Assembly (NCBI RefSeq): GCF_965204125.1 | Contig: NZ_OZ241968.1 | Location: 1,048,840-1,112,839, forward strand | Origin: Candidatus Poriferisodalis sp. | Lineage (GTDB): Bacteria; Actinomycetota; Acidimicrobiia; Acidimicrobiales; Poriferisodalaceae | Length of the DNA stretch: 64,000 bases | Direction of reading: 5' to 3' | Shown here: positions 6,507-56,418 of the stretch, piece after piece | Position numbering within the stretch: the first letter of the stretch is position 1 | Layout: each line of letters begins with the position of its first letter | Notes under the pieces: model-generated | Databases searched by the model: none | What the model was told of the DNA's origin: nothing | What the model saw: the letters and a program-made list of their open reading frames with translations, nothing else | Program-made: the position numbers and the translations under genes

Positions 6507-9233
<2,727 letters not shown>

Positions 9234-14448: not shown

Positions 14449-14649
14449 GCCGTGGACCCTAGCTACCTGCCTCAGTGCCAGCCGTTGCGGCCTGCAGCCA
14501 CGGGAATCGAGGATGTCAAGTTCCTGTCGAGGAGTGATGAGGAACGTAGGCGTCGAAGCACTCGCTCTCGGGGTCAGATGCCAACGCCGCCCGCGGAGCG
14601 TGGTCGCGGTCGTCCCAGAACCGCCTCGCCGGTGCGGGGGTCGGCGCGG

Positions 14650-19394: not shown

Positions 19395-19447
19395 GGTTAT
19401 GTTTCTCCTTGTTCGGCTCCTTTCCGTGTGATTTCGAGCGCTGATAA
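19395..19447 (-). promoter_or_regulatory. Full surface-gene 5' leader (copy A) with two SD-like purine tracts
   Basis: Minus strand reads ttatcagcgctcgaaatcacacGGAAAGGAGccgaacAAGGAGAaacataacc followed by TTG. Nearly identical to the leader at 56362..56418. Confidence 0.7.
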
Positions 19448-22938: not shown

Positions 22939-22961
22939 GTGTGTCTCACGCCATTCCTACA

Positions 22962-25744: not shown

Positions 25745-25935
25745 CGGTGCGCGGAACTGCCTGCCCCGCAGCTCCGCCCAGACAGACACGATCCTGTTTC
25801 TCCTTGTTCGGCTCCTTTCCGTGCGATCTCGAGCCCCGACAGTCCCCAGATGGGTCCGTATGTGCGGTGCCTGGGCCGCCGCAGTCGGCCTCGGCCGCAG
25901 CGTTGCTCGACGGGGCTGACCGTTACGATTCGGTC
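25745..25935 (-). repeat. Orphan surface-gene leader copy B: ~95-nt upstream extension, leader and decayed 5' coding remnant
   Basis: Minus strand reads atcgtaacggtcagccccgtcgagcaacgctgcggccgaggccgac...ctgtcggggctcgagatcgcacggaaaggagccgaacaaggagaaacaggatcGTGtctgtctgggcggagctgcggggcaggcagttccgcgca. Near-identical to the inverted copy at 51637..51825. Confidence 0.85.
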
Positions 25936-26883: not shown

Positions 26884-27070
26884 CGCACAGACGCGAGGAG
26901 CCCCAGGGGCGGGACCCCTGCGACTGCAGATGCACCGCCGTGCCCAGCCTTGGCGGCCACAGTGTCGACCGCCTGCCCGCCGCTCCGCCCAGACAGCCAA
27001 GGTCCTGTTTCTCCTTGTTCGGCTCCTTTCCGTGCGATCTCGGGCCCTGACAGTCTCAAGACGGCCGTTC
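26884..27070 (-). repeat. Orphan copy C: leader, ~65-nt 5' coding remnant and terminator-like hairpin (a collapsed surface-gene cassette)
   Basis: Minus strand reads gaacggccgtcttgagactgtcagggcccgagatcgcacggaaaggagccgaacaaggagaaacaggaccTTGgctgtctgggcggagcggcgggcaggcggtcgac...cagggg-tcccg-cccctg-gggctcctcgcgtctgtgc. The last part matches the conserved terminator module gacgcgaggagcccc. Confidence 0.75.
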
Positions 27071-35601: not shown

Positions 35602-37299
35602 TCAGCTCTGCGTATTGACGACTGGGAAGTAGCGGCGTGCACGTGTTTTGCCAACCGGGCGAGCTTTGCCCGCCGCGGCCAGGTTGTTGAGGATCTTGCG
35701 GGCCACTGCCCGGTCGACGTCGAGCAGGCTCGCCGCTTCTGCGGTGGAGATGCTGCCGAGGCGTTCGATTTCCCGTAGCAGCCTGACGGTGCGCTCGTGC
35801 GCCTTGTCTCGGGCCGGCACCCCGGCGCGTCTGATGAGTTCGTCCGACAGCCGGTACTGCGTGCCGCCGGCGCGACCCACGCGTTCGATGAGTCCGTGTA
35901 AGCGCATCTCGTCGAGCAGGGCGTCCACGTCGATGCTGGGGAGCACGTCGGCGAGGTGCCGTTTGGCGGCTTCGCCGCGGCGTCGTAGCTCGACGAGCAC
36001 GCGGCGCTGCGCAGCTGAGCCCGCCCATGGATCCAGCGCGAGCAGCCATGCCTGCTCGTCGAGATCGATCAGGAACTGGTTGCGCAATGTCACGGTGAGC
36101 GAATCGGATTCGGCGGCGAATTCGGGAGGACGCATCAAGCGCGATTCCATCTCTTGGAACATGCGGTCGACTCCCTCGCCGTACTCCTCCACGAAGCCCA
36201 TGCTGCGCAGCGTCCTCATCAGACGGCGGTTGCGGCTGAAGTGCTCGAGTCGCATGTTGTCGACCGTGATGTGGCCGGCGAGCGGGCCGGGGCTGCGAAT
36301 CTCGATTCGGTCGTCCCACACGGTGACGTCGATCGTGGTTCCCACCCGGCCGTAGTCGCGGTGCGCGAGCGCGTTCAGCAGCGCCTCGCGCACCACAGCA
36401 TGGGGGTACTCCGGGATGGGCTCGCGAAACAGGCCCGACACCGCTTCGTAGGTGCGGGTGTGCCTGTCGATGAACTCGACGCAGCAGCCGAAGACGACCT
36501 CCAACGGCCCCCAGCACTCGTGATGGTCGGAGGTGGGGCCCGCAATCGGGCCGATCCCTGCTCGGCGCACGAGCTGCACCGCTGCACCAGGCACGAACTG
36601 GCGCGGGTCGCGTGCGAAGAGAACCGCTGCAGCGGTCGTCACCTCGATATCGCCGCCGGCCGCAGCGCTGGAGGCTCGCTCGGCGAGGTGCAGATCGACG
36701 AGTGCGCTGTCGAGATCTGCCCCGACCACAGCAGGGCGCCCGTTGCGCGCCAGCGCCGAGTTGACGAGCTCGACGTCGAAGTCGGCCGGGTCGAACCGGC
36801 GGTTCAACGGCTCCTCTTCTGCCGAGCGGCGAGATCGGTCCCGGACGAACGAAGCGAGCGCGTCACCCACCAGCGGTTGCGAGTCGCCGCCGACGCGGCG
36901 AAGCAGCCGTCCATCGGGCGTGGTGACGATGCGGTCGCTGACCTGGGGGACCATCACAGCAATGAGCTCCACACCGTCGACACGGAACGGCTTGAGCCCG
37001 ACGGGGACATCGCACTGGTTGGCATATCGGGTGATGCTGTCCTGCACACGCTGGCTCAGCGAGCAGCCGGTGATCTCGCGCACGCCGCCGGTATCGCTCA
37101 CGCCGAGGATCACCAACCCGCCGTCGGTCATGGCCATGGCGGGAAGCAACTCCTTGAAGCTGTCCCCGGGCCCGCCCTTGAAGTCAAGGGTTTCGTGTTC
37201 GACCTCGCCGAACAGGTCCCAGAACTGGCCGGCTGCGAGATCGTCGGCGATGTCTGCGAGCTGGGGTTGCGGCCGCGCCATGCTTGCCACTCTAGCCAA
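35602..37299 (-). CDS. AlbA_2 (Schlafen-type divergent AAA) + HATPase_c_4 + C-terminal winged-HTH protein; putative transcriptional regulator
   Basis: ETLDFKGGPGDSFKELLPAMAMTDGGLVILGV (AlbA_2). REALLNALAHRDYGRVGTTIDVTVWDDRIEIRSPGPL (HATPase_c_4). C-terminal ISTAEAASLLDVDRAVARKILNNLAAAGKARPVG. TTG at 37299; a more likely ATG at 37281. Confidence 0.75.
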   Translation of the reverse strand: MARVASMARPQPQLADIADDLAAGQFWDLFGEVEHETLDFKGGPGDSFKELLPAMAMTDGGLVILGVSDTGGVREITGCSLSQRVQDSITRYANQCDVPVGLKPFRVDGVELIAVMVPQVSDRIVTTPDGRLLRRVGGDSQPLVGDALASFVRDRSRRSAEEEPLNRRFDPADFDVELVNSALARNGRPAVVGADLDSALVDLHLAERASSAAAGGDIEVTTAAAVLFARDPRQFVPGAAVQLVRRAGIGPIAGPTSDHHECWGPLEVVFGCCVEFIDRHTRTYEAVSGLFREPIPEYPHAVVREALLNALAHRDYGRVGTTIDVTVWDDRIEIRSPGPLAGHITVDNMRLEHFSRNRRLMRTLRSMGFVEEYGEGVDRMFQEMESRLMRPPEFAAESDSLTVTLRNQFLIDLDEQAWLLALDPWAGSAAQRRVLVELRRRGEAAKRHLADVLPSIDVDALLDEMRLHGLIERVGRAGGTQYRLSDELIRRAGVPARDKAHERTVRLLREIERLGSISTAEAASLLDVDRAVARKILNNLAAAGKARPVGKTRARRYFPVVNTQS

Positions 37300-37304
37300 T
37301 GAGC

Positions 37305-37426
37305 AGAAGATTCTATAATCTTCTGCCCATAACTCGCATTTTCGGGGGTTCTTGGAGAAGATTTCAATATCTTCTCATCGAATACAGCATTTTTTCTATT
37401 GCGGATAGAAGATTTTATAATCTTCT
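37305..37426. promoter_or_regulatory. Three palindromic operator-like sites AGAAGAT-N6-ATCTTCT spaced exactly 51 bp apart
   Basis: Sites at 37305-37324 (agaagattctataatcttct), 37356-37375 (agaagatttcaatatcttct) and 37407-37426 (agaagattttataatcttct). They lie in an AT-rich tract immediately upstream of 35602..37299. Confidence 0.7.
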
Positions 37427-37700
37427 CCTCGCGCGGGAACACGTGCCCTCACGGCCGAGCGCGCTGGCGACGATGCGTTGGGTGGCTCTCGAAGCGAAGC
37501 TCGGCAGCACTCAAAGCATCGACAGCACAGCGACATCACTGCAGCGACTCGCCGCCAAGACCGACACCGACCGCGTCGGACCACCCTCCGACCTGATCGT
37601 GATCACCGCCTCGGGCTACAACCACCAACGACCCCACGGCACCGCCGTTGCCTCCGCGACCACCATCACCCCCTAGTCCAAACAACACCTCGCAGACGCG

Positions 37701-37732
37701 AAGAGCCCCGGGGCGGGTGCCCCGGGGCTCTT
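37701..37732 (-). terminator. Conserved hairpin terminator (copy T2) downstream of S2
   Basis: aagagccccgggg-cgggtg-ccccggggctctt. Conserved 3' UTR at 37733-37802. Confidence 0.8.
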
Positions 37733-37802: not shown

Positions 37803-40700
37803 CTAGGGAGTCTTGACGCTGCTCGAGACAGCGATCCGCACCTGCGAGGAAGCGTTGAAGTTCTCATCAACCTTGTCCTGTGCGCCGGTGTTGTCGGCCC
37901 CTGTCACAGCGTCAACGGCGTAGCCGGTAGCGACTGCTGGCACCGCCGGGAACGCTGCGATCGCCGGAGGACCGGTGACCGCGGTGCCGCCGCCGGTGCC
38001 TGCCGCGGTCTGCACGAGATCGCGTGCCATCGGCAGGTTCTTCACCAGCGCTGTCTCCATCTCATACCGCACCTTGCGCGTCGGAGGCGTGGCCGTGACC
38101 ACTGTCTCGGTCAGCGCCGGGGTGTCGGCGGAGAGGTCGTCGACGATCCTGAGACCGCCGTCGGCTGTATCGGCGGTCGGTGCCGTGCGGATCCGGGTGA
38201 TGCCCGCTGCGAGCGTCTCGGCCGCAGTCGGCCGGGTGCGCACCGCAGCCGGCGCCAGGATGTCGGCCAGCAGTTCGTCGTTGGTGACGACGTCGACGAA
38301 GGCGTTGAAGTTCACCTCGATGGCGAACTGCGTACGCCCGGTACCGCTGGCGGCAACCGACTGGTTCCGAACCGTGAGCAAGCCCAGTCGCACCTTGGGG
38401 TCGCCGTTCTCGCAGTCTCCGAAGCCTGCGGTGAACCGTGCGTCGAAGGCGGCGTTCGCCTTCAACGCGGCGAGCAGGTCGCCCAGGGTGGCCGTGACGG
38501 GACCGTTGTTGAACCGCACCGTGACCCGCTGGCCCTTGGTGTCGACGCGCACGTCGATGTCCAGCGGCTTCTGGGCGCTGTAGGTGCTGGCCCGGTCGAA
38601 CACCATCGTCCAGCCGTTGCCCGCAGCGCCGTCGGCGTCGCCGCCGGGCTTCGCGGTGATCACGATCTCGTCGTCGTTGACCTCGGCTGCGCCTGCCACG
38701 AGTGTCTCGGGCACTGTCCACGAGGCTCTCGCGGAGTGCTTGAGATTGCTCATCAGGATCGAGCTGATCTTCGGGCTGGCCTGCGCCTTGATCGCCGTGC
38801 CGGAAGTCCCGGCGCTCACGTTGCCCGACGTGTCAGCAACAGCACCCGGGCTGATGACCAGCCGGTCACCGGGCTCCAAGGGGCGGTTGATGGTGACCGT
38901 CGCAGTGGCCGCACCGGCAGTGTGATCCACCGCCGGAGCCGGGTCCGCAGCAGCACCAGGCCCCGGAACGAGCCTCACCTCATTGGTGGCGAGCACCGCG
39001 GTGCCCGCAATCATGACGTTGTCGGAGAAGCTGACGTTGAACAGGCTCCTGGGCTCCCTCGCACCCGCGATGCCGACGATCGAGATCGTCGGACGTGCAC
39101 GGTCCGGCGGGGCAGCCATCACGGTCTCCGAGGTCGGCGCAACAGTGCGCTGGTCCTTGCCGGTGCCGAACTTGGCGGTCGACGAAACGACCGAGATCGT
39201 GTCGCCGCCCTTGAGCGGCTGGCCGAGCGTGACGTCGATCCGGCGCTTGTCGCACGCGCCGCCGGTGTTGCTCGACGCCACGTGGGAGACGACAGCGGGC
39301 ACGCCGTTGATCTCGATGAGATCCTGCAGCTTCGCCAGGTCAGGCTCGACGTCGTCGCTGAAGTACAGCGTGAACACCGGACCAGTCGAACTCGCCGGTG
39401 TCGTGGCATCGACGAGGATCGTCGTAGTGGTGTCGGGCCGCACCGGGTCGTCCTGGTTGATGGCCTTGTCCTTGTTGGTGTCGCTGTTGGCGCCGATCGC
39501 CACGGTGAGCGCACCCGACGAAGCAGCCGCTTCGATGGCGGCGTCCATGGTGGCCTGGCTGACCGCAGCGGTGCCGCCGATGGCGACGATGCCCAGGTTC
39601 AGCTTGTCGGCGCCGATGTTCTTGGGCGTCGCAGCGAGGTAGTCGCGCACCGACGCGGGCAGGCTGTTGGCGTCGCCCATCGGCTCGTTGACCACCAGCG
39701 GGGTCACCATGAACCCGCCGGTCAGGCTCGTGGCCAGCACCGGGGCGGCGACCACGCCGTCGGGATTGCCGCGCACGAGCGCGACCCGATCGGCGGACAC
39801 CAGTCCCAATGTGTCCTTGCAGCCGTCGTTGGCCATCTTGGCCAGCTCCACCGACACCGCCGAAGCCGACGCGCCGTCGACACGGGCCACCGTGTCCACG
39901 CCCAATGTGGTCAAAGCCGAGGCAACCCCAGCAGACACGATGTCGGTGCTGCCGATGATCTGCACATGCTCGATGTCGTTCTCAGAGATGAACTCAGCCG
40001 TCGCGTCAGGCAGCTCATCAGCAGCGGTCATCAGCAGCGGAAGCTGCATCCGGTACACGGCGGTCTGCACCGCCACGCCGTAGGCGAGCATGTCGGTGCC
40101 GCCGTTGATCAGCACAGCAGACGCCGCGTCGGTGCCGCACCACGACGACACCGAATCGATCTTGCCCGCAAGGTTCGCGGCCGTCTCATAGCGGTCAGTG
40201 CCCCCGATGCGCGTCACCATGGGCTTGTTGTTCAGGCCCTCGATCGCAGTGAGCGTCGCGTCGTCCACCGCAGCCGTGCCGCCCAGCACGTAGACCGTGT
40301 CGACGCCGTAGTCCTCGATGAAATCAGCGACGCCGCCGTGCAGGCTGCCCGTGGGGGTCAGCAGGATCGGAGCGTCGGCATAGCCGGCGAAACCGGCAAC
40401 CGAGATCGAATCGACCAACGTGTTGCCCGACGCCACGAACGCCACCGGAACAGCGCCCAGACCGCCCTTGGAGGTAGCGAAGTTCTTCGCCACCCGCAAA
40501 GCCGTGTCATAACGATCCTGACCAGCGAACTCACGTGCATCAGGCACGTTGTCGTTGTCCGTGTCGACCTTCACCTCGAAGGCCGTGTTTGCGGCCTGAG
40601 CAGGGCTTCCTGCTACGACCGCCAGCACCGACGCCATCAGCATCGCCGCCACGATCGCAGCCAGGGAACGCCTGCCACGCCGCTTCGAATAGGTAGTCAA
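37803..40700 (-). CDS. Large CWB2-anchored surface protein, putative S-layer-type paralog S2 (subfamily with S5)
   Basis: Conserved TTG start at 40700 (LTTYSKRRGRRSLAAIVAAMLMASVLAVVAGSPAQAANT); the ORF is open from 40727. CWB2 motifs GQDRYDTALRVAKNF, GGTDRYETAANLAGKI and DGASASAVSVELAKMA. C-terminal tail ENFNASSQVRIAVSSSVKTP. Confidence 0.85.
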   Translation of the reverse strand: MTTYSKRRGRRSLAAIVAAMLMASVLAVVAGSPAQAANTAFEVKVDTDNDNVPDAREFAGQDRYDTALRVAKNFATSKGGLGAVPVAFVASGNTLVDSISVAGFAGYADAPILLTPTGSLHGGVADFIEDYGVDTVYVLGGTAAVDDATLTAIEGLNNKPMVTRIGGTDRYETAANLAGKIDSVSSWCGTDAASAVLINGGTDMLAYGVAVQTAVYRMQLPLLMTAADELPDATAEFISENDIEHVQIIGSTDIVSAGVASALTTLGVDTVARVDGASASAVSVELAKMANDGCKDTLGLVSADRVALVRGNPDGVVAAPVLATSLTGGFMVTPLVVNEPMGDANSLPASVRDYLAATPKNIGADKLNLGIVAIGGTAAVSQATMDAAIEAAASSGALTVAIGANSDTNKDKAINQDDPVRPDTTTTILVDATTPASSTGPVFTLYFSDDVEPDLAKLQDLIEINGVPAVVSHVASSNTGGACDKRRIDVTLGQPLKGGDTISVVSSTAKFGTGKDQRTVAPTSETVMAAPPDRARPTISIVGIAGAREPRSLFNVSFSDNVMIAGTAVLATNEVRLVPGPGAAADPAPAVDHTAGAATATVTINRPLEPGDRLVISPGAVADTSGNVSAGTSGTAIKAQASPKISSILMSNLKHSARASWTVPETLVAGAAEVNDDEIVITAKPGGDADGAAGNGWTMVFDRASTYSAQKPLDIDVRVDTKGQRVTVRFNNGPVTATLGDLLAALKANAAFDARFTAGFGDCENGDPKVRLGLLTVRNQSVAASGTGRTQFAIEVNFNAFVDVVTNDELLADILAPAAVRTRPTAAETLAAGITRIRTAPTADTADGGLRIVDDLSADTPALTETVVTATPPTRKVRYEMETALVKNLPMARDLVQTAAGTGGGTAVTGPPAIAAFPAVPAVATGYAVDAVTGADNTGAQDKVDENFNASSQVRIAVSSSVKTP

Positions 40701-40720
40701 GGTTATGTTTCTCCTTGTTC
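40701..40720 (-). promoter_or_regulatory. Truncated leader of S2 (only the gaacaaggagaaacataacc part is shared with full leaders)
   Basis: Minus strand reads ccgttgcaca|gaacaaggagaaacataacc|TTG. Homology to the full leader begins exactly at gaacaaggag. Confidence 0.7.
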
Positions 40721-41088
40721 TGTGCAACGGGAGATGCTCCCGCTCTGCATTGTCAAACCCCGCGTCGTCGCGGTTTGTGACAGCGCCGACCGGTTGAAGG
40801 GCTCACCTCGGCACATTCGCACCCGGTGAGCCCCACCTGGTGTCCCGCCTACGCGAGGTACACGGAACAGGTCCAGTGTAACGACCTTCGCTGCCGCGTC
40901 ATAGGGGAAATTTCGGCCGATTTTCGAGCCGCCGCGACCGGTGCTTCCAGCGGTGTCGACCGGGCGCTCGGCGGCGAAGATCGCGAATGCTGTGGACCCT
41001 GCGGAGCGCTCAGCCGATCACGCCGAGGGCGTCGAGCGTCGATGGGCCGTGTGGCTGCGCGCTGGAGTCGGGGCTGTGCCGACGAGCG

Positions 41089-41379
41089 CTACGAGAAAAT
41101 GCCGAGCCCTACCACGACGCCGAGGATCGACACGCCGATTCCGGCCAGCCAGCGGAACTGGTGCCGCGCTTCCTTGCGGTCGGCCTCGCGGGCATCGACG
41201 AGCCGCTCGAACTTGGTATCGAGACGCTCGAACGCGGTATCGAGACGCGCGATGTCGCTCTTGGTGGCGAGATCGGGCAGCGGCACAGGGCTCAGACAGG
41301 ACATGACGTATTCGGCGAGCGACTCGTCGGCCTGCTCGCACCACCAAGCGTAGAGGCGGGAACGATCTTGTTCAGACAC
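41089..41379 (-). CDS. Small coiled-coil, C-terminally membrane-anchored protein (96 aa)
   Basis: GTG 41379 preceded by gaaaggaatccgct (SD). Sequence VSEQDRSRLYAWWCEQADESLAEYVMSCLSPVPLPDLATKSDIARLDTAFERLDTKFERLVDAREADRKEARHQFRWLAGIGVSILGVVVGLGIFS. Homologous relics lie at 63475-63890 and 61745-61840. Confidence 0.6.
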   Translation of the reverse strand: MSEQDRSRLYAWWCEQADESLAEYVMSCLSPVPLPDLATKSDIARLDTAFERLDTKFERLVDAREADRKEARHQFRWLAGIGVSILGVVVGLGIFS

Positions 41380-41513
41380 AGCGGATTCCTTTCTGCAGCG
41401 ATCCGCTGTGGACAGTAGGGAGCCTCTCTCAATTCGAAAAATGAATTTCATGTTGTTTTGTTGATTGCTGCAATTGGCGTCGGCTTGGCTGGCCGGCGTC
41501 GCCGTTGGCAGTC

Positions 41514-42713
41514 TCAGGAGGATCGGGGGCGGGGGGCTACGAAGTTGGCCCAGGCGGCCATGAGCTTGCGGCGTTGTTCGAACAGGTCGCCGCGGACGTA
41601 GGCGGCTTCGGTGCTGTTGCCCACCACGTGGGCGAGCGCCGCCTCGCCTACTGCCCACGGCGTGGTGGTGGCCTCGATGGTCCACGTCTTGAACGACGAG
41701 CGGAACCCGTGCACGGTGCAGTCGAGCTCGTTGGTGCGCAGCAGCTTCAGCAAGGTCTGCCAGCTCAGCGGATGGCCGGGCTTGAGCGGCGAGGGGAACA
41801 CCAGGCCCGAGTCGTCATTGAGCTCGCGGGCGGCGTCGAGCACCTCGAGCGCTTGCTGGCTGAGGGGAACACGGTGCTCGGTGCCCGACTTCATGCGCTC
41901 GCCGGGGATGCGCCAGGCGGCATCGGCTTCCTCTATCTCGCTCCAGCGGGCGCCGCGGGCCTCGGCAGAGCGCACGGCGGTGAGCACCAGGAACCGCAGG
42001 CAGAGCCGGGCTGCCTCTGAGGAGTTGGAGGCAGCCACCTGCCGCAGCGCTTGGCGCACGTCTCGGTAGTGCAGTGCCCGCTGGTGGTTGCGGATGCGCG
42101 GCATGGGCGGCAGCGCGGCGTCGATGCCGTCGCCGGCCGCGTTCGACCCGATGTGCTCGTGCAGCGCCATCGCATAAGAGAGAACAGTGCGGATGCGCTG
42201 GCGCACCCGCCGGGCCGTCTCGGGCTTGTCGTGCCAGATGGGATGCAGCACCTCGAGCACATGGGCCCGTGTGATGTGGTCGACCGGGAGCTCCAGCAGC
42301 GACTCGGCGTGGCGGTGAAGCGAGTCGAGCCATTCACGGGAGTGGCGCTCGTTGCGCCAGCGGGGCGCGTTGAGCGCATGCACCGAGGCTGCGGCTTGGG
42401 CGAAGGTGGGCACGGCGACGACCTGGCTGCCGGGGTCGGGCACCGCACGGCCGTTGACGAGCTGGGCGCGGGCCCGCAGCTCGGCGGTGCGCCGGCGGGC
42501 CTCGTCGAGGCTGACTGCCGGGTAGGCGCCGAGCCCGATGTCGCGGCGCTTGCCGTCGGCGGTGACCCGGGCGACCCATGAGCGGCTGCCCGACGGCTTG
42601 ACCACGAGCGTGAGCCCGCCTCCGTCGGCGTGCTTGCCGGGAAGCGCGCGCCCGATCTCGGCTGGGCTGAGTCTGCCTGGCTGTGCCACGTGTGCGCCTC
42701 TCGGGTTCCCCAC
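41514..42713 (-). CDS. int: Tyrosine recombinase / P4-type integrase (N-terminal arm-binding DUF4102-like domain + catalytic domain)
   Basis: N-terminus GGLTLVVKPSGSRSWVARVTADGKRRDIGLGAYPAVSLDEARRRTAELRA. Catalytic signatures LVLTAVRSAEARGARWSEI (R), HGFRSSFKTW (HxxR) and AAYVRGD (Y). Confidence 0.85.
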   Translation of the reverse strand: MGNPRGAHVAQPGRLSPAEIGRALPGKHADGGGLTLVVKPSGSRSWVARVTADGKRRDIGLGAYPAVSLDEARRRTAELRARAQLVNGRAVPDPGSQVVAVPTFAQAAASVHALNAPRWRNERHSREWLDSLHRHAESLLELPVDHITRAHVLEVLHPIWHDKPETARRVRQRIRTVLSYAMALHEHIGSNAAGDGIDAALPPMPRIRNHQRALHYRDVRQALRQVAASNSSEAARLCLRFLVLTAVRSAEARGARWSEIEEADAAWRIPGERMKSGTEHRVPLSQQALEVLDAARELNDDSGLVFPSPLKPGHPLSWQTLLKLLRTNELDCTVHGFRSSFKTWTIEATTTPWAVGEAALAHVVGNSTEAAYVRGDLFEQRRKLMAAWANFVAPRPRSS

Positions 42714-42839
42714 TGTGCCCCTCGAATATGGGGAACAAGACGCCGTCTAGGGAACGAATCGGTTTTGGGCAATCGGTTAGGTGATTTGTTGACCTGCGAC
42801 ATTCGAAGTTCCTCATATCGACGGGCGCAGCGATGCGAG

Positions 42840-42859
42840 GAACAAGGAGAAAAGGAACC
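42840..42859 (+). promoter_or_regulatory. Truncated leader of S3 (gaacaaggagaaaaggaacc)
   Basis: Reads gcgatgcgag|gaacaaggagaaaaggaacc|TTG. Homology to the full leader starts at the same gaacaaggag as in S2. A candidate -35/-10 pair is TTGACC 42789-42794 and TCATAT 42813-42818 (weak). Confidence 0.6.
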
Positions 42860-45748
42860 TTGACTATCCGAACGAAGCGGCGGGGCAGGCGTTCCCTCGC
42901 AGCGATCCTGGCGGCGATGCTCATGGCGTCGGTGCTAGCGGTCGTAGCGGGATCCCCAGCCCAGGCCGCAAACACATCTGGCGAGTATCTCGTCGAAGGC
43001 GAGCGTGAGTTCGCCGGTAGCGACCGCTACCAGACGGCGCTGAAGCTCGCCACCCGCTTCGCGGACGACCGCGGCGGCATCGGCTCGGTCTCAGCTGCGT
43101 TCATCGCATCGGGCGAGTCGCTGGTAGACGCCGTGTCGGTCTCCGGTCTTGCGGGCTTCATGGACGCCCCAGTCCTGTTGACGCAGTCGGGCAGCCTGCA
43201 TGGCGGCGTTGCCGACTACCTCGAGGACTACGGCATCGGCAACCTCTACGTGCTCGGCGGCGAGGCAGCCGTCAGCGGCGCAGTGGAAGATGCCCTGAAG
43301 GGTCTGGCCCACAGCCCGACGGTGACCCGCATCTCGGGCGACACCCGTTATGACACTTCGGCTGCTATTGCGTCGAACCTGTCGGGTGAGTCGTGGTGCG
43401 GCACCAACGAGAACTCCGCGATCATCGTGAACGGCTCCGATGAGGATCTGTTCAACGCTGTGGCGATCGGCCCGGTGGCCAACCGGCTCGAGCTTCCGGT
43501 GCTGCTGACTGCTGGCGACTCTCTCGTCGACGCAGTGGTCAGCTACATCGAGTCCGAAGATGTCGAGCATGCAGTTGTGGTCGGTGGCGAAGACAGCGTG
43601 TCTGCTGACGTCATGACCGCGCTGGGCAACGCCGGTGTGGACACGGTCGAGCGGATCGGTGGCGACTCTGCCGCTGCAGTCTCGGTCGCGATCGCTGGCG
43701 TGATCGGCGGCGACTGCGCCGACGACCTGTCGCCGGTGTCGGGCAACACGGTGGCGCTGATCAACAGCGACAGCGTGATCGACGGCATCCCGGCCGCTCC
43801 GGTGCTCGCTGACGACGGCGACCAGCTTGGCGGCGGTCTGATCCCGATCCTTGCGGTCGGCGACAGCCTGCCTGCTTCGGTGCGTGACTACCTGGCGGCG
43901 ACGCCTGAGGAAGACGGCGCTGGCAACAAGGTCCACCTGCGGGTGCTGGCCGTCGGCGGAACCGCTGCGGTAAGCGACGCGGTCATGTCAGCAGCGGTCG
44001 ACGCTGCTGCCTCGGCTGACGCGCTGACCGTCACGATCAGCGGTGCGGCCGACAAGGCCGACGCAGGTCTGGCAGCGTCCCGCGGTGGCACCATGATCCA
44101 CCTGCACTTCAGCGACGACATCTCGCGTGCTACGGATGCGAACCTTCGCAACAAGCTCGAGGATGTGCTGCAGATCAACGGCGTGCCTGCTGACGTGGCA
44201 GCCGATGCCCCCGGCACCGCTGCGCCGTGCGATCCCGACACCGTGACGGTGACGCTGGAGCGCACGCTGAAGGCTGGCGACGTGGTCTCCATCGTGGAGG
44301 GCGCGGTACTGGTGGGCGCCGACGGCGACCGCCGGCCCGTGCAGCCCACGTCGGCCACGGTGCCTGCGGCTGCGGTCGACAACCAGCGTCCGACGATCCG
44401 GATCGTGGCCATCATCGGCCACACCGAGCTGTACGGCCTGGTGTCCGACGATACGGCGCTGGCCGAGACAGCAATGTTGTCTTCAACAGCACTGACCGGT
44501 ACTGCTCTGTCGGACCTCTTCGAGGTGACCGCTGGCGATGTCGGCATCGTGAGCTATACCTCGAGTGCGACGTTCCCGACGGACGGAACTGCGGCTCCGA
44601 AGACTTCGCTGCTGACGTTCACCCTCGGCGACGACCCGAACAGGGACGGCACCCAGGTCGGCACGATCGACTCCAGCGATCGCTTCCGGGCCAACCGTGG
44701 AGCTATCGAGGACGCCTCCGAGAACGAGAGCCAGGTCACCACGGGCGTGCCCGTGTCGCCTGTCAGCCAGCTGCGAGTGAGCAGCGTGCAGATGAGCAAC
44801 CTGAAGCACAACGCTCAGGCCATCGCACCGATCCCGTCGGCGCATCAGGGCGCTACCGCTCCCGATCAGGCGACGGGGCGCAGTGTTACGCAGGCGCAGG
44901 GCAATGAGGCTGTGTGGCTGCAGGCCAAGGAGGACGGCGCCGCGGCTGGTGCGTTCGGCAACGGCTGGACCATCCGTGCAGACAGGGCGAGCACTTGGGA
45001 CATGAAGAAGGACGCCGACATCGACGTCTTCATCAGCACCAAGGACCGTCGGATCGTGGTGCGGATCGTCAACGGCGAGCCGACGTTCTCTGACCTGAAG
45101 GCTGCCCTGGAGGGCAACGCGACGGTTAACAGCCTGTTCAACGTCCTCGTGGACAACTCGTACCTCGACGACAACACGGACACCTGCAAGGCTGCGAACC
45201 ACAAGCTGATGCATGCGCTGCTGCCAGTGTCGACTGCAGAAGACGCAGGCGACGGTGACGACATCGCCACTCTTGACGGTGGCAACACCCAGGCGAACAT
45301 CAGGGTGACCTTCAACGGCTACGTCGAAGACATCACCGCTGCTCAGTCCACCCAGCTGATGACGCACGTGCTGGCCGACGCACTGAAGCGTGCGACGGCC
45401 GCTGGTGTCGCTGACCAGGCGGCCCTGCTGACGGCGCTCACTGCAACGACTGATGACTTCGTGAAGGCTGCTTCAGCCGGACCGACGCGGACTGGCATGT
45501 TCGACATCAGCACCGGCAACGCTGCGGCTCTGCCGAAGGCGCGGGACATCGTCGAGATTCCCGACGGCTTCGCCAAGAACGCCGACGGCACGCCGACTGA
45601 CAGTGACACCAGCACCACTGCCATTGACCGGACGGACTCCAACTCGGTGGCCAACGGCTACGGCGACACTGCCGCTGGCGATAACGACTGGAACTACGGT
45701 TCGAAGATCCGCATCGTCACCAGCAGCGCCGTTCCTGCACCCGAGTAG
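42860..45748 (+). CDS. Large CWB2-anchored surface protein, putative S-layer-type paralog S3
   Basis: TTG 42860 (LTIRTKRRGRRSLAAILAAMLMASVLAVVAGSPAQAANT); the ORF is open from 42833. CWB2 motifs as in S1. Shared internal blocks RFRANRGAIED..ESQVTTGVPVSPV and WLQAKEDGAAAGAFGNGWTIRADRASTWD. Tail NDWNYGSKIRIVTSSAVPAPE. Confidence 0.85.
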   Translation: MTIRTKRRGRRSLAAILAAMLMASVLAVVAGSPAQAANTSGEYLVEGEREFAGSDRYQTALKLATRFADDRGGIGSVSAAFIASGESLVDAVSVSGLAGFMDAPVLLTQSGSLHGGVADYLEDYGIGNLYVLGGEAAVSGAVEDALKGLAHSPTVTRISGDTRYDTSAAIASNLSGESWCGTNENSAIIVNGSDEDLFNAVAIGPVANRLELPVLLTAGDSLVDAVVSYIESEDVEHAVVVGGEDSVSADVMTALGNAGVDTVERIGGDSAAAVSVAIAGVIGGDCADDLSPVSGNTVALINSDSVIDGIPAAPVLADDGDQLGGGLIPILAVGDSLPASVRDYLAATPEEDGAGNKVHLRVLAVGGTAAVSDAVMSAAVDAAASADALTVTISGAADKADAGLAASRGGTMIHLHFSDDISRATDANLRNKLEDVLQINGVPADVAADAPGTAAPCDPDTVTVTLERTLKAGDVVSIVEGAVLVGADGDRRPVQPTSATVPAAAVDNQRPTIRIVAIIGHTELYGLVSDDTALAETAMLSSTALTGTALSDLFEVTAGDVGIVSYTSSATFPTDGTAAPKTSLLTFTLGDDPNRDGTQVGTIDSSDRFRANRGAIEDASENESQVTTGVPVSPVSQLRVSSVQMSNLKHNAQAIAPIPSAHQGATAPDQATGRSVTQAQGNEAVWLQAKEDGAAAGAFGNGWTIRADRASTWDMKKDADIDVFISTKDRRIVVRIVNGEPTFSDLKAALEGNATVNSLFNVLVDNSYLDDNTDTCKAANHKLMHALLPVSTAEDAGDGDDIATLDGGNTQANIRVTFNGYVEDITAAQSTQLMTHVLADALKRATAAGVADQAALLTALTATTDDFVKAASAGPTRTGMFDISTGNAAALPKARDIVEIPDGFAKNADGTPTDSDTSTTAIDRTDSNSVANGYGDTAAGDNDWNYGSKIRIVTSSAVPAPE

Positions 45749-45816: not shown

Positions 45817-45850
45817 GAAGAGCCCCGGGGCATCCGCCCCGGGGCTCTTC
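45817..45850 (+). terminator. Conserved hairpin terminator (copy T3) downstream of S3
   Basis: gaagagccccgggg-catccg-ccccggggctcttc. The 3' UTR at 45749-45816 is nearly identical to that of S1. Confidence 0.8.
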
Positions 45851-45917
45851 GCGTGTCCGCACGAGTTGTATTCGTTTCTGCTAGTTCGTACTACTAGAAC
45901 AACTAAGGTTCCTGTCG

Positions 45918-48900
45918 GTGCCGCATCACGGCGGCCCCAACCCATTGACGTCAGGCAGAGAACTCAGAACTGTGACCACGCGACCCCGTCCACGTGGCCG
46001 GCGCTCGCTTGCCGTGGCCCTTGCGACAATGCTCGTCGCGTCGGTGCTGGCGGTGACAGCGGGTACCCCAGCCCACGCCGCGAATACCGCTGGCGAGTAC
46101 CTCACCGCCGATGGCGAGCGTGAGTTCGCCGGCAGCGACCGCTACCAGACGGCGCTGAGGCTCGCAGAGCGCTTCGCCGATGACCGCGGCGGCATCGGCT
46201 CGGTGTCGAATGCGTTCATCGCATCGGGCGAAACGCTGGTGGATGCTGTGTCGGCAGCCGGCCTCGCCGGCTTCATGGACGCGCCGGTGCTGTTGACTCG
46301 CTCGGACCGCCTGCACAGCGCAGTGGCCGACTTCCTCGACGACTACGGCATCGGCACCATTCACGTGCTCGGCGGAACCGCTGCCGTCAGCGACGGCGTG
46401 ATCGACGAGCTCAAGGGGCTGGCCGGCGTCGGCTCAGTGGAGCGCATCGCCGGCGACACCCGCTACGACACGTCGGCGGCCATTGCGTCGCACCTGTCGG
46501 GCGAGTCGTGGTGCGGCACCAATGAGAACTCGGCGATCTTGGCGAACGGCGCCGATGAGCGGCTGTTCGATGCTGTGGCGATCGGCCCGGTGGCGAACCG
46601 GCTCGAGCTGCCGGTGCTGCTGACGGCCGGCGACGAGCTGGCGGACGCAGTGCTCGCCTACATCGAGTCGGACGACATCGAGCATGTGGTGATGGTGGGT
46701 GGCGAGGCCAGCGTGTCGGCTGCCGTCGAGCAGGCGCTGCGCGATGCCGGCGTGGACACGGTGGAGCGCATCGGCGGCGACTCTGCGGCCGCGACCTCGG
46801 TTGCGATTGCCGAGACCATCGGCGGCGACTGTGCCGACGACCTGTCGCCGGTCTCGGTGGACACGGTGGCATTGGTGAACCAGGACAGCCTGGCCGACGG
46901 CATCTCGGCCGTTCCGGTGCTGGCCGACGACACCGACCAGCTCGGCGGCGGCCTCGTGCCGATGCTCGCCGTGGGCGGCACGCTGCCCGCTTCGGTGCGC
47001 GACTACCTGGCTGCGACCCCTGAGGAGGACTCGGCCGGCAACAAGGTGCACCTGCGGGTGCTGGCTGTGGGCGGCACTGCGGCGGTGAGCGACTCGGTGA
47101 TGGCTGCTGCTGTTGCCGCGGCCGGCGCCGCCGACGCGCTCACGGTCACCATCAGCGCTTCGGCCGACAAGGCAGATGCCGGCCTGGGCGACGCCAGGGG
47201 TCAGAACACGGTGCACCTGCACTTCAGCGACGACATCTCCCGGGCCGACAACGCCAATCTGCGCAACAAGCTCGAGGACATCCTGCAGATCAACGGCGTG
47301 CCGGCCGACATCGCAAGCGATGCCCCCGGGATCGAGGCACCGTGCGATCCCGACACGGTCACCGTGACGCTGGAGCGCAATCTGAAGGCAGGCGACACCG
47401 TGTCGATCGTGTCCGGGGCAGTGCTGGTGGGCGCCGACGGCGACCGCCGCACGGTGCAGCCCGTCTCGGCCACCGTGCCCGCAGCGCCGGTCGACCGGCA
47501 GCGCCCGTCGCTTCGCATCATCGCCATCGTCGGCGACAACATTGTGTGGGGCCTGATCTCCGATGACACGGCCTTGAGCGAAGCGGGGCTGCTCGCTGAG
47601 AACCTGACCAATGCCGACGGCAAGCCGCTGTTCGAGCAGACATCGTCTTCGGGCACGGCAGGACTCTTCGAGTTGCACGCCGAAGGCATCGCCTTCGACA
47701 CCCCTGGCGCGCAGCGCACGACCGCCCGATTCCGCTATTTCCTCCAGGACGACCCCGCTACGCCGGACGTCAACGAGGGCATCGTGAGCGCCAACGACCG
47801 CTTCCGGGCGAATCGCGGCGCCATCGTGGACGCTGCGGGCAACGAGAGCCAGGTCACCACTGGGGTGCCGGTGCAGCCGGTCAGCAAGCTGCGGGTGAGC
47901 AGCGTGCTGATGAGCGAACTGAGCCACACGGCCCAGGCACGGGCACTCGTGCCCTCGGCGCACAGGTTCGAGACGCCGCCCGAGCTGCGCTTCGTGGACC
48001 CGAACATTCCGTCGCCGAGCGCGTCGGACAACCCGTCGAACCCGGCGGTGTGGCTGCAGGCCAAGGCCGACGGGGCTGCTGCTGGCGCCTACGGCAACCT
48101 GTGGACCGTTCGGGCCGACCGGTCGAGCTCGTGGGACGGCAGCAAGGATCCCGAGGTGGAGGTGCTGGCCAGCGTCTCGGCACGGCAGGTGTTCGTGCGC
48201 GTCGTCAACGGCGAGCCGAGATTCTCCGACGTGAGCGCCGCTCTGGAGGCGCACCCGGTGGTCAGCAGCCTGTTCAACGTGATCGTCGACAACCTGTACG
48301 TCAACAACACCGACACCTGCGAGCTGGCGAACCCGAAGATCCAGCACCAGCTGCTGCCCGCCACCGGCGACGAGGCGGGCGCCGACGGCGACGACGTCCA
48401 GGCGCTCGTGGGGGGTGTCACCAAGGCCGGTTTCCGTGTGAACTTCAACGGCTGGATCGAGAGCATGAACGCCGACCAAGCCGCTCGGCTGCTGGCGGCC
48501 CTGCTCGATGACACGCTGGCGCGGTACAAGGCCGCGGTACCGGTGCAGGGCGACAACAGCGAGACCGATCTCGACGACCTGCGTGCGATTCTCGGCGAGT
48601 TCGACCCCGACGGCGTCACGCAGGGCACGCCGCTGGCGCTGTTCGTGAAGGTGACCGGGGACGGTCCGCGGACTGTCGTGGAGTTCAAGGTGGAGACGAA
48701 CCACGCTGTGGCGCTGCCGCAGCCGCGTGACATCGTGGACATTGCTGACGGCTTCGACACCGACGCCGACGGCGACCCGGTGGACGGCGACGACCAGACC
48801 GACGGGGTGCAGCGCACTGACACCGGCGGGCGGTCGGTGGTGGACGGCTACGGCGACAACCACTCCGACGGCACCACCGACAACGACTTCAACTACGGCT

Positions 48901-48947
48901 CACGGGTGCGGATAGCCCGCAGCAGCAGCGTCACCCCGCCCGACTAG
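45918..48947 (+). CDS. Large CWB2-anchored surface protein, putative S-layer-type paralog S4 (different upstream region)
   Basis: Signal peptide RGRRSLAVALATMLVASVLAVTAGTPAHAANT. By homology the start could be GTG 45972 (VTTRPRPRGRRS). GTG 45918 has an AAGG 11 nt upstream. CWB2 motifs GSDRYQTALRLAERF, AGDTRYDTSAAIASHL and GGDSAAATSVAIAETI. Tail NDFNYGSRVRIARSSSVTPPD. Confidence 0.85.
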   Translation: MPHHGGPNPLTSGRELRTVTTRPRPRGRRSLAVALATMLVASVLAVTAGTPAHAANTAGEYLTADGEREFAGSDRYQTALRLAERFADDRGGIGSVSNAFIASGETLVDAVSAAGLAGFMDAPVLLTRSDRLHSAVADFLDDYGIGTIHVLGGTAAVSDGVIDELKGLAGVGSVERIAGDTRYDTSAAIASHLSGESWCGTNENSAILANGADERLFDAVAIGPVANRLELPVLLTAGDELADAVLAYIESDDIEHVVMVGGEASVSAAVEQALRDAGVDTVERIGGDSAAATSVAIAETIGGDCADDLSPVSVDTVALVNQDSLADGISAVPVLADDTDQLGGGLVPMLAVGGTLPASVRDYLAATPEEDSAGNKVHLRVLAVGGTAAVSDSVMAAAVAAAGAADALTVTISASADKADAGLGDARGQNTVHLHFSDDISRADNANLRNKLEDILQINGVPADIASDAPGIEAPCDPDTVTVTLERNLKAGDTVSIVSGAVLVGADGDRRTVQPVSATVPAAPVDRQRPSLRIIAIVGDNIVWGLISDDTALSEAGLLAENLTNADGKPLFEQTSSSGTAGLFELHAEGIAFDTPGAQRTTARFRYFLQDDPATPDVNEGIVSANDRFRANRGAIVDAAGNESQVTTGVPVQPVSKLRVSSVLMSELSHTAQARALVPSAHRFETPPELRFVDPNIPSPSASDNPSNPAVWLQAKADGAAAGAYGNLWTVRADRSSSWDGSKDPEVEVLASVSARQVFVRVVNGEPRFSDVSAALEAHPVVSSLFNVIVDNLYVNNTDTCELANPKIQHQLLPATGDEAGADGDDVQALVGGVTKAGFRVNFNGWIESMNADQAARLLAALLDDTLARYKAAVPVQGDNSETDLDDLRAILGEFDPDGVTQGTPLALFVKVTGDGPRTVVEFKVETNHAVALPQPRDIVDIADGFDTDADGDPVDGDDQTDGVQRTDTGGRSVVDGYGDNHSDGTTDNDFNYGSRVRIARSSSVTPPD

Positions 48948-50574: not shown

Positions 50575-50629
50575 TGAACGGCCGCTGAGAAGGCTGTCAG
50601 GGCTCGGAATCTCACGGCAAGGAGCCGAT
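50575..50629 (+). repeat. Degenerate, truncated surface-gene leader copy E'
   Basis: gtgaacggccgctgagaaggctgtcagggctcggaatctcacggcaaggagccga aligns with gaacggccgtctagcgagctgtcagggctcgagatcgcacggaaaggagccga of copy G, then diverges. Confidence 0.65.
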
Positions 50630-51636: not shown

Positions 51637-51825
51637 GACGATCGTAACGGTCAGCCCCGTCGAGCAACGCTGCGGCCGAGGCCGACCGCGGCGGCCCAGG
51701 CACCGCACATACAGACCCATCTGGGGACTGTCAGCACCCGAGATCGCACGGAAAGGAGCCGAGCAAGGAGAGAAGGAACCGTGGCTGCTCGGGCGAAGCG
51801 GCGGCGCGAGCCTTGTGCGTGAGCT
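51637..51825 (+). repeat. Orphan leader copy F (long form with ~95-nt upstream extension; inverted twin of copy B)
   Basis: gacgatcgtaacggtcagccccgtcgagcaacgctgcggccgaggccgaccgcggcggcccaggcaccgcacatacagacccatctggggactgtcagcacccgagatcgcacggaaaggagccgagcaaggagagaaggaaccGTGgctgctcgggcgaagcggcggcgcgag. Confidence 0.85.
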
Positions 51826-52675: not shown

Positions 52676-52815
52676 GAACGGCCGTCTAGCGAGCTGTCAG
52701 GGCTCGAGATCGCACGGAAAGGAGCCGAACAAGGAGAAACAGGATCGTGTCTGTTCGTTCGAACCCACGAGGCGGGTGGTTCTTCGCGCCCGCTTCGATC
52801 GTTGGGTTGTATCTG
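52676..52815 (+). repeat. Orphan leader copy G with a decayed 5' coding remnant
   Basis: gaacggccgtctagcgagctgtcagggctcgagatcgcacggaaaggagccgaacaaggagaaacaggatcGTGtctgttcgttcgaacccacgaggcgggtggttcttcgcg. The remnant aligns with ttgactacctactcgaagcggcgaggcaggcgttccctcgc. Confidence 0.85.
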
Positions 52816-54973: not shown

Positions 54974-55095
54974 GAACGGCTGTCAGGGCTCGAGTTCGCA
55001 CGGAAAGGAGCCGAACAAGGAGAAACAGGATCGTGTCTGTTCGTTCGAACCAGACGGGGTGGGCGGTTCGTCGAGCCGCCGCGGGCTCTCGGTTT
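54974..55095 (+). repeat. Orphan leader copy H with a decayed 5' coding remnant
   Basis: gaacggctgtcagggctcgagttcgcacggaaaggagccgaacaaggagaaacaggatcGTGtctgttcgttcgaaccagacggggtgggcggttcgtcgag. Almost identical to copy G through gttcgaacc. Confidence 0.85.
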
Positions 55096-56361: not shown

Positions 56362-56418
56362 GGGGCTGTCAAGACCCGAAATCACACGGAAAGGAGCCGA
56401 ACAAGGAGAAACATAACC
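56362..56418 (+). promoter_or_regulatory. Full surface-gene 5' leader (copy I) attached to S5
   Basis: ggggctgtcaagacccgaaatcacacGGAAAGGAGccgaacAAGGAGAaacataacc followed by TTG. Identical to copy A from cgaaatcacacgg onward. Confidence 0.7.

Follow-up and report, generated by a model that had tools for sequence, protein, structure and literature searches.

Two genes for CWB2 surface proteins, S2 and S3, diverge from a tyrosine recombinase gene in a 64-kb stretch of DNA (64,000 nt; hereafter the window) from 'Candidatus Poriferisodalis', and both lose homology to the leader of their gene family at the identical base, which raises the question of how they came to be joined to other upstream sequences at this one position. 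S2 (37803-40700, minus strand; 965 aa from a TTG codon) and S3 (42860-45748, plus strand; 962 aa from TTG) both carry CWB2 (PF04122) domains and signal peptides, and are paralogous over their full length, including common terminator hairpins at 37691-37732 and 45818-45859 (93%). Their 5' ends form an inverted repeat of 145 nt with 84% complementarity, the arms of which lie 2101 nt apart: the left arm (40585-40729, minus strand) comprises the core described below, the ribosome-binding site, the TTG start and the signal peptide of S2, and the right arm (42831-42975, plus strand) the same elements of S3. Identity tracts between the two arms reach at most 14 nt. An imperfect inverted repeat of about 130 nt around the recombinase had been proposed in an initial annotation of this DNA and is thus confirmed, as is the loss of leader homology at one and the same nucleotide, since comparison of the upstream sequences gives ...cccgttgcaca immediately before the core for S2 and ...gcgatgcgag for S3.

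The core, GAACAAGGAGAAA, is 13 nt long and occurs eight times in the window, with 0.01 occurrences expected and none of 100 shuffles reaching eight. The S2-side copy (40708-40720, minus strand) lies across the Shine-Dalgarno sequence of S2, where crossover is proposed to take place, and the S3-side copy (42840-42852, plus strand) is inverted relative to it. The family leader, U_L, a segment of about 50-70 nt that ends in cacggaaaggagcc followed directly by GAACAAGGAG, is common to six of the eight cores. Full U_L and core are joined to a CWB2 gene at 19402-19414 (minus strand; gene at 16440-19394) and at 56399-56411 (plus strand; gene ending at 59226). The copies at 25797-25809 and 27008-27020 (minus strand) and at 52727-52739 and 55013-55025 (plus strand) are orphans, suggested in the initial annotation to be possible reservoir expression sites; they are genuine copies of U_L and core joined to non-CWB2 DNA, and retain about 60 nt of a decayed gene 5' end, which at 25797-25809 is decayed signal-peptide sequence followed by unrelated DNA; the site at 55013-55025 is upstream of a gene for a RES-domain toxin, which is encoded on the other strand. 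Two further leader copies, both on the plus strand, were absent from the initial annotation, namely an orphan U_L at 51716-51807 with the variant core GAGCAAGGAGAGA (51761-51773) and a partial U_L at 50575-50628, the homology of which ends 2 nt into the core position; with these the window holds ten sites rather than the eight defined by the exact core. Direct repeats of U_L and core enclose toxin-antitoxin and defence cargo, and in a related locus (L099) a cargo block is situated between a P arm with its core and a U_L-core-gene unit, P arm being the name of one of the two other upstream classes. An integron-like cassette comparison found no pair of loci in which cargo is present in one and absent from the other with precise core boundaries.

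The sequence upstream of the core is unrelated between the U_L class and the two classes found at S3 and S2 (U_P and U_D). S3 is joined to the P arm (42714-42839, plus strand), a short divergent control region between the start of the integrase and the core, with conserved blocks that include TTGACC and clustered GGAAC motifs (six in 171 nt, 0.38 expected); this cluster beside the core resembles repeated protein-binding sites. S2 is joined to the D arm (40721-40935, minus strand), a conserved structured non-coding element of about 215 nt that ends at the core and reads toward the S2-side gene. The D arm is nearly invariant among loci whose integrases are 78-98% identical, it has no match in Rfam, and among the 66 pairs of its consensus fold 12 show compensatory changes (3.5 in shuffles), with 96.5% of cells paired and many G-U pairs. 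The earlier view that the spacer holds only the integrase and a small gene was correct with regard to both genes, but not with regard to the 'only', as it missed this element. The small ORF (41092-41379, minus strand; 96 aa) is conserved at its N-terminus, varies in a coiled-coil repeat region and carries a hydrophobic anchor at its C-terminus, and finds no match in Pfam. It is missing from the 1.6-kb segment of two loci (L004 and L005), and is therefore probably dispensable for inversion.

The recombinase gene itself (41514-42713, minus strand; 391-399 aa) likely starts at a GTG codon at 42689, which gives 391 aa. Its product is of the P4/CP4-57 integrase type, with Arm-DNA-bind_3 and Phage_int_M domains (E = 4e-16 and 3e-20) and the Phage_integrase domain PF00589 (E = 3.7e-15), and its arm and central domains match CP4-like integrases in the PDB (3jtz, an arm domain, and 2khv). 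Catalytic residues, picked by inspection of the translation rather than from a structure-based alignment, are R in AVRSAEA, K in ERMKSG, HGFR, H in LAHVVG and Y in AAYVRGD. With PF00589 and the R-K-H-R-H/W-Y residues, the predicted protein belongs to the tyrosine recombinase superfamily, and dN/dS values of 0.08-0.25 indicate purifying selection. The domain architecture is that of integrases of tRNA-linked islands, and the possibility that the gene belongs to a conventional island with att sites elsewhere had been raised as an objection to inversion. However, no tRNA is present in the window or in six related loci (L003, L005, L009, L010, L099 and L108), no direct-repeat attL/attR was found around the integrase segment, where the only direct repeats are palindromic terminators, the segment measures just 1.6-3.1 kb across loci, and the cores that flank it are inverted. 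A tRNA-Ala adjoins a more distant homologue (60%; L011) in a related MAG.

Comparison with relatives within 'Candidatus Poriferisodalis' (Acidimicrobiia), with integrases 73-98% identical to that of the window, shows that the architecture is kept while the genes joined to the arms differ. Every close relative examined has the same order, i.e. an outward-facing CWB2 gene, core, P arm, integrase, the small ORF where present, D arm, core and a second outward-facing CWB2 gene, and across the whole range of identity the integrase is always exactly bracketed by inverted cores. In favour of exchange between the two sites, both arms of the most divergent locus (L009) carry the same core substitution, GAACAGGGAGAAA; against it, the two cores differ by one base in L108. 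The genes attached to the arms, by contrast, vary. The P arm is joined to an R-type 5' end in seven lineages (the window, L003, L004, L053, L054, L105-107 and L108), whereas it is joined to a Y-type end, with the D arm on an R-type end, in five (L001/2, L005, L006, L007 and L109). The nearest relative, with 98% integrase identity, has the orientation opposite to that of the window. A single orientation among relatives, which had been named as an outcome that would speak against an invertible segment, is thus not what is seen. The two states are interleaved on the integrase tree, so that at least four switches are implied. Individual genes can also be followed from one upstream class to another: a T-type gene follows U_L in L001 and L108 but the D arm in L003 and L004, and S3, on the P arm in the window, has a full-length ortholog (86.4%) on the D arm in L005, where position 11437 aligns with window position 42840, the start of homology to the S3 body on the other arm. 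The S2 ortholog in L108 (91%) is also on the D arm, and an AbiEi/AbiEii block that L001 has on the D side is on the P side in L105. Judging from the locus orders, two inversions from core to core would convert L001 into L003.

The sample ERZ25069412 contains two contigs, a circular 3.6-Mb genome at 229x coverage and a 53-kb contig at 7x (L004 and L005), whose integrase segments are identical at 1608 of 1608 positions. Over the first 980 nt counted from the core, gene B shows no difference between them, yet one contig has it behind the D arm and the other behind the P arm. A flanking Fic/HATPase_c_4/AAA block (3.6 kb, 99.8%) is placed on different sides of the integrase in the two contigs. Gene B falls to 80-88% identity in its 3' half, however, and the neighbouring gene differs as well; the contigs are co-occurring haplotypes, separated by at least two inversions or by other events. 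As far as assembled sequences can tell, both orientations therefore occur in nature, among strains as well as between co-sampled haplotypes, and the segment appears invertible, as initially supposed. The full-length paralogy of S2 and S3 and their common hairpins make an inverted duplication plausible as the origin of the arrangement, and it could be imagined that one ancestral leader truncation was followed by such a duplication around an inserted integrase, with nothing ongoing since. This is highly improbable, being already contradicted by the occurrence of both orientations and of multiple partner genes per arm in close relatives, including the flipped 98% relative and the co-sampled haplotypes with their identical segment.

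In all cases, the upstream class switches between positions -1 and +13, i.e. inside GAACAAGGAGAAA, in line with the proposal that the core marks a site-specific crossover point, and exchange points appear confined to it. This bears on a second explanation, in which RecA-type recombination or gene conversion acts between paralog 5' ends, as in the sap locus of Campylobacter fetus, and the integrase is a bystander such as the remnant of an element. Mosaicism is indeed common: gene bodies such as that of gene B pass from 100% identity to 80-88%, the R/Y type of the 5' end is not tightly linked to the type of the mature N-terminus, with which it reassorts, the 5' ends in L105 are identical at 127 of 127 positions between a U_L site and a D-arm site, and both arms of L110 carry the same R-type end. 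The loose linkage and the L110 ends indicate that homologous recombination or gene conversion is also active here. As the source of the flank switches it is nevertheless unlikely, because independent switches all fall inside a 13-nt tract with complete heterology on one side, while longer identity tracts further downstream are unused. The repeat arms are just about 80% identical across loci, and their longest runs of identity measure 14-32 nt; as tracts longer than the core exist, RecA-type exchange would not target it. Nor does a bystander fit well with an integrase that is intact, under purifying selection and always bracketed by inverted cores.

The reading preferred here, to which we assign a probability of roughly 0.7, is that the segment at 40.7-42.85 kb serves as the hub for inversions among many sites, in the manner of a shufflon, by which a domesticated island integrase permutes the leaders of CWB2 genes. 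The resident P4/CP4-57-type integrase would recombine 13-bp cores that lie over the ribosome-binding sites of a CWB2 gene subfamily, each site having a right half that is conserved (core, start codon and signal peptide) and a left half of one of three unrelated types, i.e. the P arm, a short region that also serves as the integrase promoter, the structured leader of the D arm, or U_L. Sites left of the integrase face left and sites right of it face right (38 of 40 sites point away from it), so that any left-right pair is inverted and recombination between the two would flip the DNA in between. Each flip would swap the pairing of paralog and leader and leave the coding sequence untouched, and with S3 currently behind the P arm and S2 behind the D arm, both would be without U_L from the same nucleotide.

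That the resident integrase catalyses the exchange is suggested by its position, conservation and co-occurrence with the sites, and a link of this kind also leaves room for a core-specific recombinase encoded elsewhere, e.g. of the Xer type, with the local integrase mobilising, say, the segment or neighbouring cargo. Arm-type P4-like integrases normally integrate or excise islands, and to our knowledge no P4-type integrase with an arm-binding domain is a known invertase. Moreover, a survey of programmed inversions describes inversions that continued when the recombinase gene next to them had been deleted (PMC9881135), which counts in the same direction. On the other hand, no other recombinase was found in the 64-kb window, the integrase accompanies the two central sites in every relative without exception, the unit of gene, core, P arm and integrase is duplicated as one block in L010, and the GGAAC cluster in the P arm is what binding sites by the core would look like, so that a distant enzyme is improbable, even more so than homologous exchange.

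The hub reading shares features with several known systems. Inversion systems are recognised by a recombinase gene inside a segment bracketed by inverted sites and kept in close relatives, with both orientations joined at the sites, and this is the arrangement found here; shufflons, in turn, have more than two sites (8-10 here), asymmetric sites, exchange of partners (here between U_L and the arms) and permutations by nested inversion. As in the R64/IncI shufflon, one tyrosine recombinase would serve many inverse short sites, although we know of no Arm-DNA-bind_3 domain in Rci. Its sfx sites are asymmetric (PMC11852207) and, like those described here, combine one conserved arm and a crossover region with an arm that is not conserved. 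The R64 shufflon, however, swaps 3' segments of pilV, whereas here whole genes are re-paired with 5' leaders. In sap, a central invertible segment likewise lies between oppositely oriented S-layer paralogs with conserved 5' ends, all cassettes face outward, and nested inversions bring different paralogs to the expression site; but exchange is largely RecA-dependent and can occur anywhere in about 600 bp of 5' homology, there is a single promoter and no recombinase in the segment, in contrast to the 13-nt core, the arms of about 80% identity, the integrase inside and at least three leader classes of the present locus.

In Lactobacillus acidophilus, inversion of a chromosomal segment switches slpA and slpB, two opposed S-layer genes that trade an expression site, marked by a long structured leader, via a short stretch of conserved 5' sequence; just two genes and one active site are involved there and the segment carries no integrase, as opposed to many sites, three leaders and an integrase. 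The Mycoplasma vsa and vpma families, switched by the Xer-like recombinases HvsR and Xer1, also combine a locus-encoded tyrosine recombinase with short target sites at the conserved 5' ends of a multigene family, in that case of surface lipoproteins, but they use one expression site, silent promoter-less genes and sites within or just before the coding region, whereas at the present locus, which has several leaders, each gene keeps its own ribosome-binding site, start codon and signal peptide. Finally, cwpV of Clostridioides difficile is a CWB2-family gene phase-varied by a tyrosine recombinase in its 5' leader, through an ON/OFF switch of about 200 bp, but it is a single gene with its recombinase, RecV, encoded elsewhere, and not one of several paralogs between which a recombinase-bearing segment is exchanged.

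What the exchange would do to expression is conjecture, since a sigma-70 consensus scan found no promoter in the P arm or the D arm, and both the switching rate and the expression effects of the system are what we infer from these comparisons. The D arm may act as a long 5' leader or as an expression site, and since S-layer mRNAs have long structured leaders, it may by analogy be the main expression site; the arms may differ in strength. If the hub reading is correct, an uncultured sponge-associated actinobacterium would re-pair its surface genes with different upstream control regions, and the outcome may be variation of its surface, be it of an antigen or of a phage receptor.

The window (G+C ~67%) contains at least 11 genes for secreted proteins with CWB2 (PF04122) repeats, and between them lie toxin-antitoxin or defence-type genes (HipA, PIN, RES, SIR2-STALD, DprA-like SLOG, Schlafen-AlbA_2/HATPase_c_4 and AAA/DUF4143). 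The CWB2 genes S2 (37803-40700, minus strand) and S3 (42860-45748, plus strand), which diverge from the integrase segment, both start with TTG, and their products have signal peptides that are nearly identical, with three CWB2 repeats each in the N-terminal part. The paralogy of S2 and S3 extends from a 13-nt core, GAACAAGGAGAAA, to the terminator, since the two genes also have near-identical GC-rich terminator hairpins in common (37691-37732 and 45818-45859, 93% over 42 nt). S4 (45918-48947) is homologous to them, but has an unrelated upstream region of its own and no core, and was rejected as a member of the switching set. The core overlaps the ribosome-binding site and occurs eight times in the window, compared with 0.01 copies expected; in six of the eight it is preceded by the family leader (U_L), a stretch of 50-70 nt ending in ...cacggaaaggagcc. 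The initial annotation had noted that S2 and S3 lose the leader at the same base and that an imperfect inverted repeat surrounds the recombinase, and both observations hold: U_L homology is absent up to the first G of GAACAAGGAGAAA, and the repeat (145 nt, 84% identity, arms 2101 nt apart) starts at the core. Additional U_L copies are found at 51716-51807, with a variant core, and at 50575-50628, where the homology ends two bases into the core; at the junctions of orphans, which are copies of U_L and core without a CWB2 gene, it ends at +2, +10 or +11, counted from the first core base. In L001 (10857-11390), U_L and GAACAAGGAG are fused to an unrelated gene, whose secreted product is rich in Gly and Ser, while the orthologous U_L in L105 precedes a CWB2 gene with a Y-type 5' end (see below), the homology breaking at +10 of the core.

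The spacer integrase had been called P4-type, in agreement with its domain architecture (Arm-DNA-bind_3, Phage_int_M and Phage_integrase, as in P4/CP4-57) and with its matches in PDB, which are arm and central domains of CP4-like integrases. Exact-sequence look-ups of the window integrase with two start choices returned no match, and homologues with 73-98% identity are present in MAGs and metagenomes, the named sources being "Candidatus Poriferisodalis" or Acidimicrobiia/Acidimicrobiales. About 20 loci with such homologues were retrieved for comparison, of which a metagenome scan with the integrase contributed only L053 and L054 as close loci. All fetched loci have the same layout, namely a left-pointing CWB2 gene, core, P arm, integrase, D arm, core and a right-pointing CWB2 gene, where the P and D arms are the two flanks of the integrase segment. 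The layout is kept even in L009, the most divergent of the fetched loci (73%), which carries the core variant GAACAGGGAGAAA on both arms (9834-9846 and 11510-11522), a concerted change; L108 has a variant, GAACGAGGAG, on the P side only (6995-7015). The dN/dS of the integrase is 0.08-0.25. The small tail-anchored gene reported beside it was likewise recovered, as a 96-aa ORF with a hydrophobic C-terminal anchor, which is usually present between integrase and D arm, is conserved at its N-terminus among relatives and is absent from L004 and L005. A conventional genomic island was rejected, since no tRNA genes were found in the window, direct repeats are lacking and the cores are inverted; a 60% homologue (L011) adjoins tRNA-Ala, like a conventional island integrase. 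Extra genes inserted within or beside the segment, which are NTP_transf_2 pairs and RelA_SpoT on the P side (L099-L104), a DUF3800 gene on the D side (L108) and an NYN-domain gene inside it (L109), account for its length of 1.6 to ~3.2 kb. In L010 (6942-17730) the unit of CWB2 gene, core, P arm and integrase is tandemly duplicated, so that each integrase copy (10001-11167 and 14228-15502) has its own P-type site, with a single D arm at 17708.

The sequence upstream of the core belongs to one of three discrete classes, P arm, D arm or U_L, which are unrelated to one another and are each conserved across genomes, while downstream of it the genes have an R-type (...AAAAGGAACCTTGACTATCCGAACG), Y-type (...AAACATAACCTTGACTACCTACTCG) or T-type (...ACCACCAAAA) 5' end. 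The P arm is joined to R and the D arm to Y or T in the window, L003, L004, L053, L105-107 and L108, and the P arm is joined to R in L054, whose D side is outside the contig; the P arm is joined to Y and the D arm to R in L001/2, L005, L006 and L109, and the P arm to Y in L007, again with the D side outside the contig. Thus the integrase segment occurs in both orientations among relatives, each in several loci, as had been suspected for the window, and its nearest relative L109 (98% integrase identity) has P-Y with D-R, compared with P-R in the window. R-type ends are found on both arms in L110. The T-type gene follows U_L in L001 and L108, and in L003 and L004 it follows the D arm (86% identity over the full length between L001 and L003); L005 has a full-length S3 ortholog (86.4%) on its D arm. 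On the outer flanks, an AbiEi/AbiEii block is a D-side neighbour in L001 and a P-side neighbour in L105. In all cases the flank class switches between -1 and +13, within the core, and two core-to-core inversions suffice to turn the gene order of L001 into that of L003 or the reverse. Strict linkage of the R or Y type to the gene body was rejected, since the D-side gene of L001 combines an R-type 5' end with an S2-like body. Four sites of the window are on the minus strand on the left and four on the plus strand on the right, and across 11 loci 38 of 40 sites point away from the integrase. Inversion between a left and a right site keeps this outward pattern, which is therefore expected of a multiple-inversion system centred on a hub.

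Two haplotypes come from a single sample (ERZ25069412), in which a circular 3.6-Mb genome (L005, 229x) and a 53-kb contig (L004, 7x) encode the same integrase and are identical over the 1608 nt from core to core. Over the first 980 nt from the core outward, gene B is the same in both, and L005 has it on the D arm and L004 on the P arm. A Fic/HATPase_c_4/AAA block (3.6 kb, 99.8%) is on one side of the integrase in one haplotype and on the other side in the second. The two also differ in the 3' half of gene B and in its neighbouring gene, and on the far side they carry unrelated paralogs (~70%), so that one simple flip was rejected and at least two events separate them. An assembly artefact was rejected as well, because L004 and L005 are long-read contigs and a shared core of 13 nt, a length far below that of reads or assembly k-mers, cannot give rise to chimeric joins. 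Contigs L001, L002, L006, L105, L109 and L110 stop 24-127 nt past a core; ends inside the conserved 5' region are expected for a repeated, possibly heterogeneous site.

The two arms within each locus are only ~80% identical over 150 nt, with longest identity tracts of 14-32 nt, among which the tract of the 13-nt core is not the longest. Nevertheless, several independent switches are located in the core, and the orientation states are interleaved on the integrase tree, indicating at least four switches. The low arm identity, the position of the switches and the interleaved states together favour site-specific exchange. Near the core, homologous recombination and gene conversion are clearly at work too: 5' types are combined with different mature N-terminus types among loci, the ends in L110 are identical on both arms, and in L105 the 5' ends at a U_L site and the D-arm site are identical in 127/127 positions.

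The D arm (40721-40935, minus strand) is nearly invariant in relatives, and the element of ~180-215 nt directly upstream of the D-side core was observed in the window, L001, L003, L005, L006, L009, L010, L053, L099, L105 and L108. Its consensus fold has 66 pairs, 12 with compensatory changes compared to 3.5 in shuffles, and 96.5% of cells are paired compared to ~40% when the partners are slid. G-U pairs are numerous when the strand directed at the D-side gene is read, and together these features suggest a structured 5' leader RNA of ~180 nt. Rfam returned no match for the D arm and leaders (40600-41150 at E<=1) and no family in the whole window at gathering thresholds, and the element may represent an undescribed class of leader RNA. 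By eye, the conserved CCCTATGAC just upstream of it could be a -10 region; a consensus promoter scan of 40500-43000 found no promoter-like site in either arm, and a terminator scan of the same region gave one terminator-like match, inside the integrase gene. The P arm, a divergent region of 125 nt, contains a conserved TTGACC, and GGAAC, present six times in 171 nt compared with 0.38 expected, would be a candidate protein-binding repeat.

In the window, orphans flank cargo genes in direct orientation, and in L099 a cargo block lies between P arm and core on one side and U_L, core and gene on the other. Such a layout may, with low probability, reflect integrase-mediated capture or excision at the core; among the compared loci no clean presence/absence pair for cargo at the core was found. 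It seems unlikely, although conceivable, that the core, besides supporting inversion, is an integration/excision site at which the integrase captures or releases toxin-antitoxin and anti-phage genes, with orphans as scars or attL/attR-like junctions, so that a domesticated P4-type integrase would run a locus that is both a surface-variation shufflon and a cargo platform resembling an integron, and the ~215-nt D-arm RNA would be a new leader class marking the principal S-layer expression site. A defence-type pair (SIR2-STALD, then DprA-like/SLOG, 21496-23753) is located inside a 6-kb block bounded by U_L and core copies at 25809 and 19414. Elsewhere in the window, an AT-rich palindrome of 20 nt, AGAAGATTCTATAATCTTCT, is present three times at a spacing of 51 nt (37305-37426) directly upstream of the Schlafen-AlbA_2/HATPase_c_4 gene (35602-37299, minus strand), and the copies look like operator sites. 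An ORF of 619 aa (9490-11349), whose C-terminal part is an HNH endonuclease domain, lies among CWB2/RCC1-repeat surface genes.

The best-supported reading of the locus is multiple inversion in the manner of a shufflon. An island-type integrase, now domesticated, would recombine short asymmetric sites that overlap the ribosome-binding site, so that CWB2 surface-protein genes, themselves left intact, trade leaders of three kinds and the relative expression of the surface paralogs probably shifts; S2 and S3 would lack U_L because they are currently in the D-arm (S2) and P-arm (S3) positions. S-layer mRNAs carry long structured leaders, and by this likeness the main site of expression may be the D arm. 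Recombinase-driven shuffling of surface genes is well known from Mycoplasma, Campylobacter, Bacteroides and plasmid shufflons, and the locus would work like the sap inversion of C. fetus, the slpA/slpB inversion of L. acidophilus, the vsa/vpma switches of Mycoplasma and the R64 shufflon, the sfx sites of which are also asymmetric (PMC11852207). In contrast to these systems, the enzyme is an arm-domain P4-like integrase, the site is on the ribosome-binding site so that whole genes are exchanged between leaders, there are several leader classes instead of one expression site, and the host lineage is different. We know of no report of a P4/CP4-57 arm-type integrase acting as an invertase for surface-gene shuffling. 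The literature searched yielded no report of recombinase-driven surface-gene shuffling in Acidimicrobiia or sponge symbionts, and none on Poriferisodalis or the S-layer of sponge Acidimicrobiia; in a survey of programmed inversions, S-layer-homology proteins appear only as an enriched annotation (PMC9881135). Automatic annotation would overlook such a system, because several of the assemblies break at core sites. A short, defined site and a compact enzyme make the prediction directly testable, both in heterologous hosts and with long-read metagenomes that already exist. If confirmed, the locus would be an example of an island integrase domesticated as a chromosomal switch and of a crossover site that coincides with the ribosome-binding site, re-pairing intact genes with alternative leaders, and it would provide a handle on cell-surface variation in uncultured sponge symbionts under phage or host pressure.
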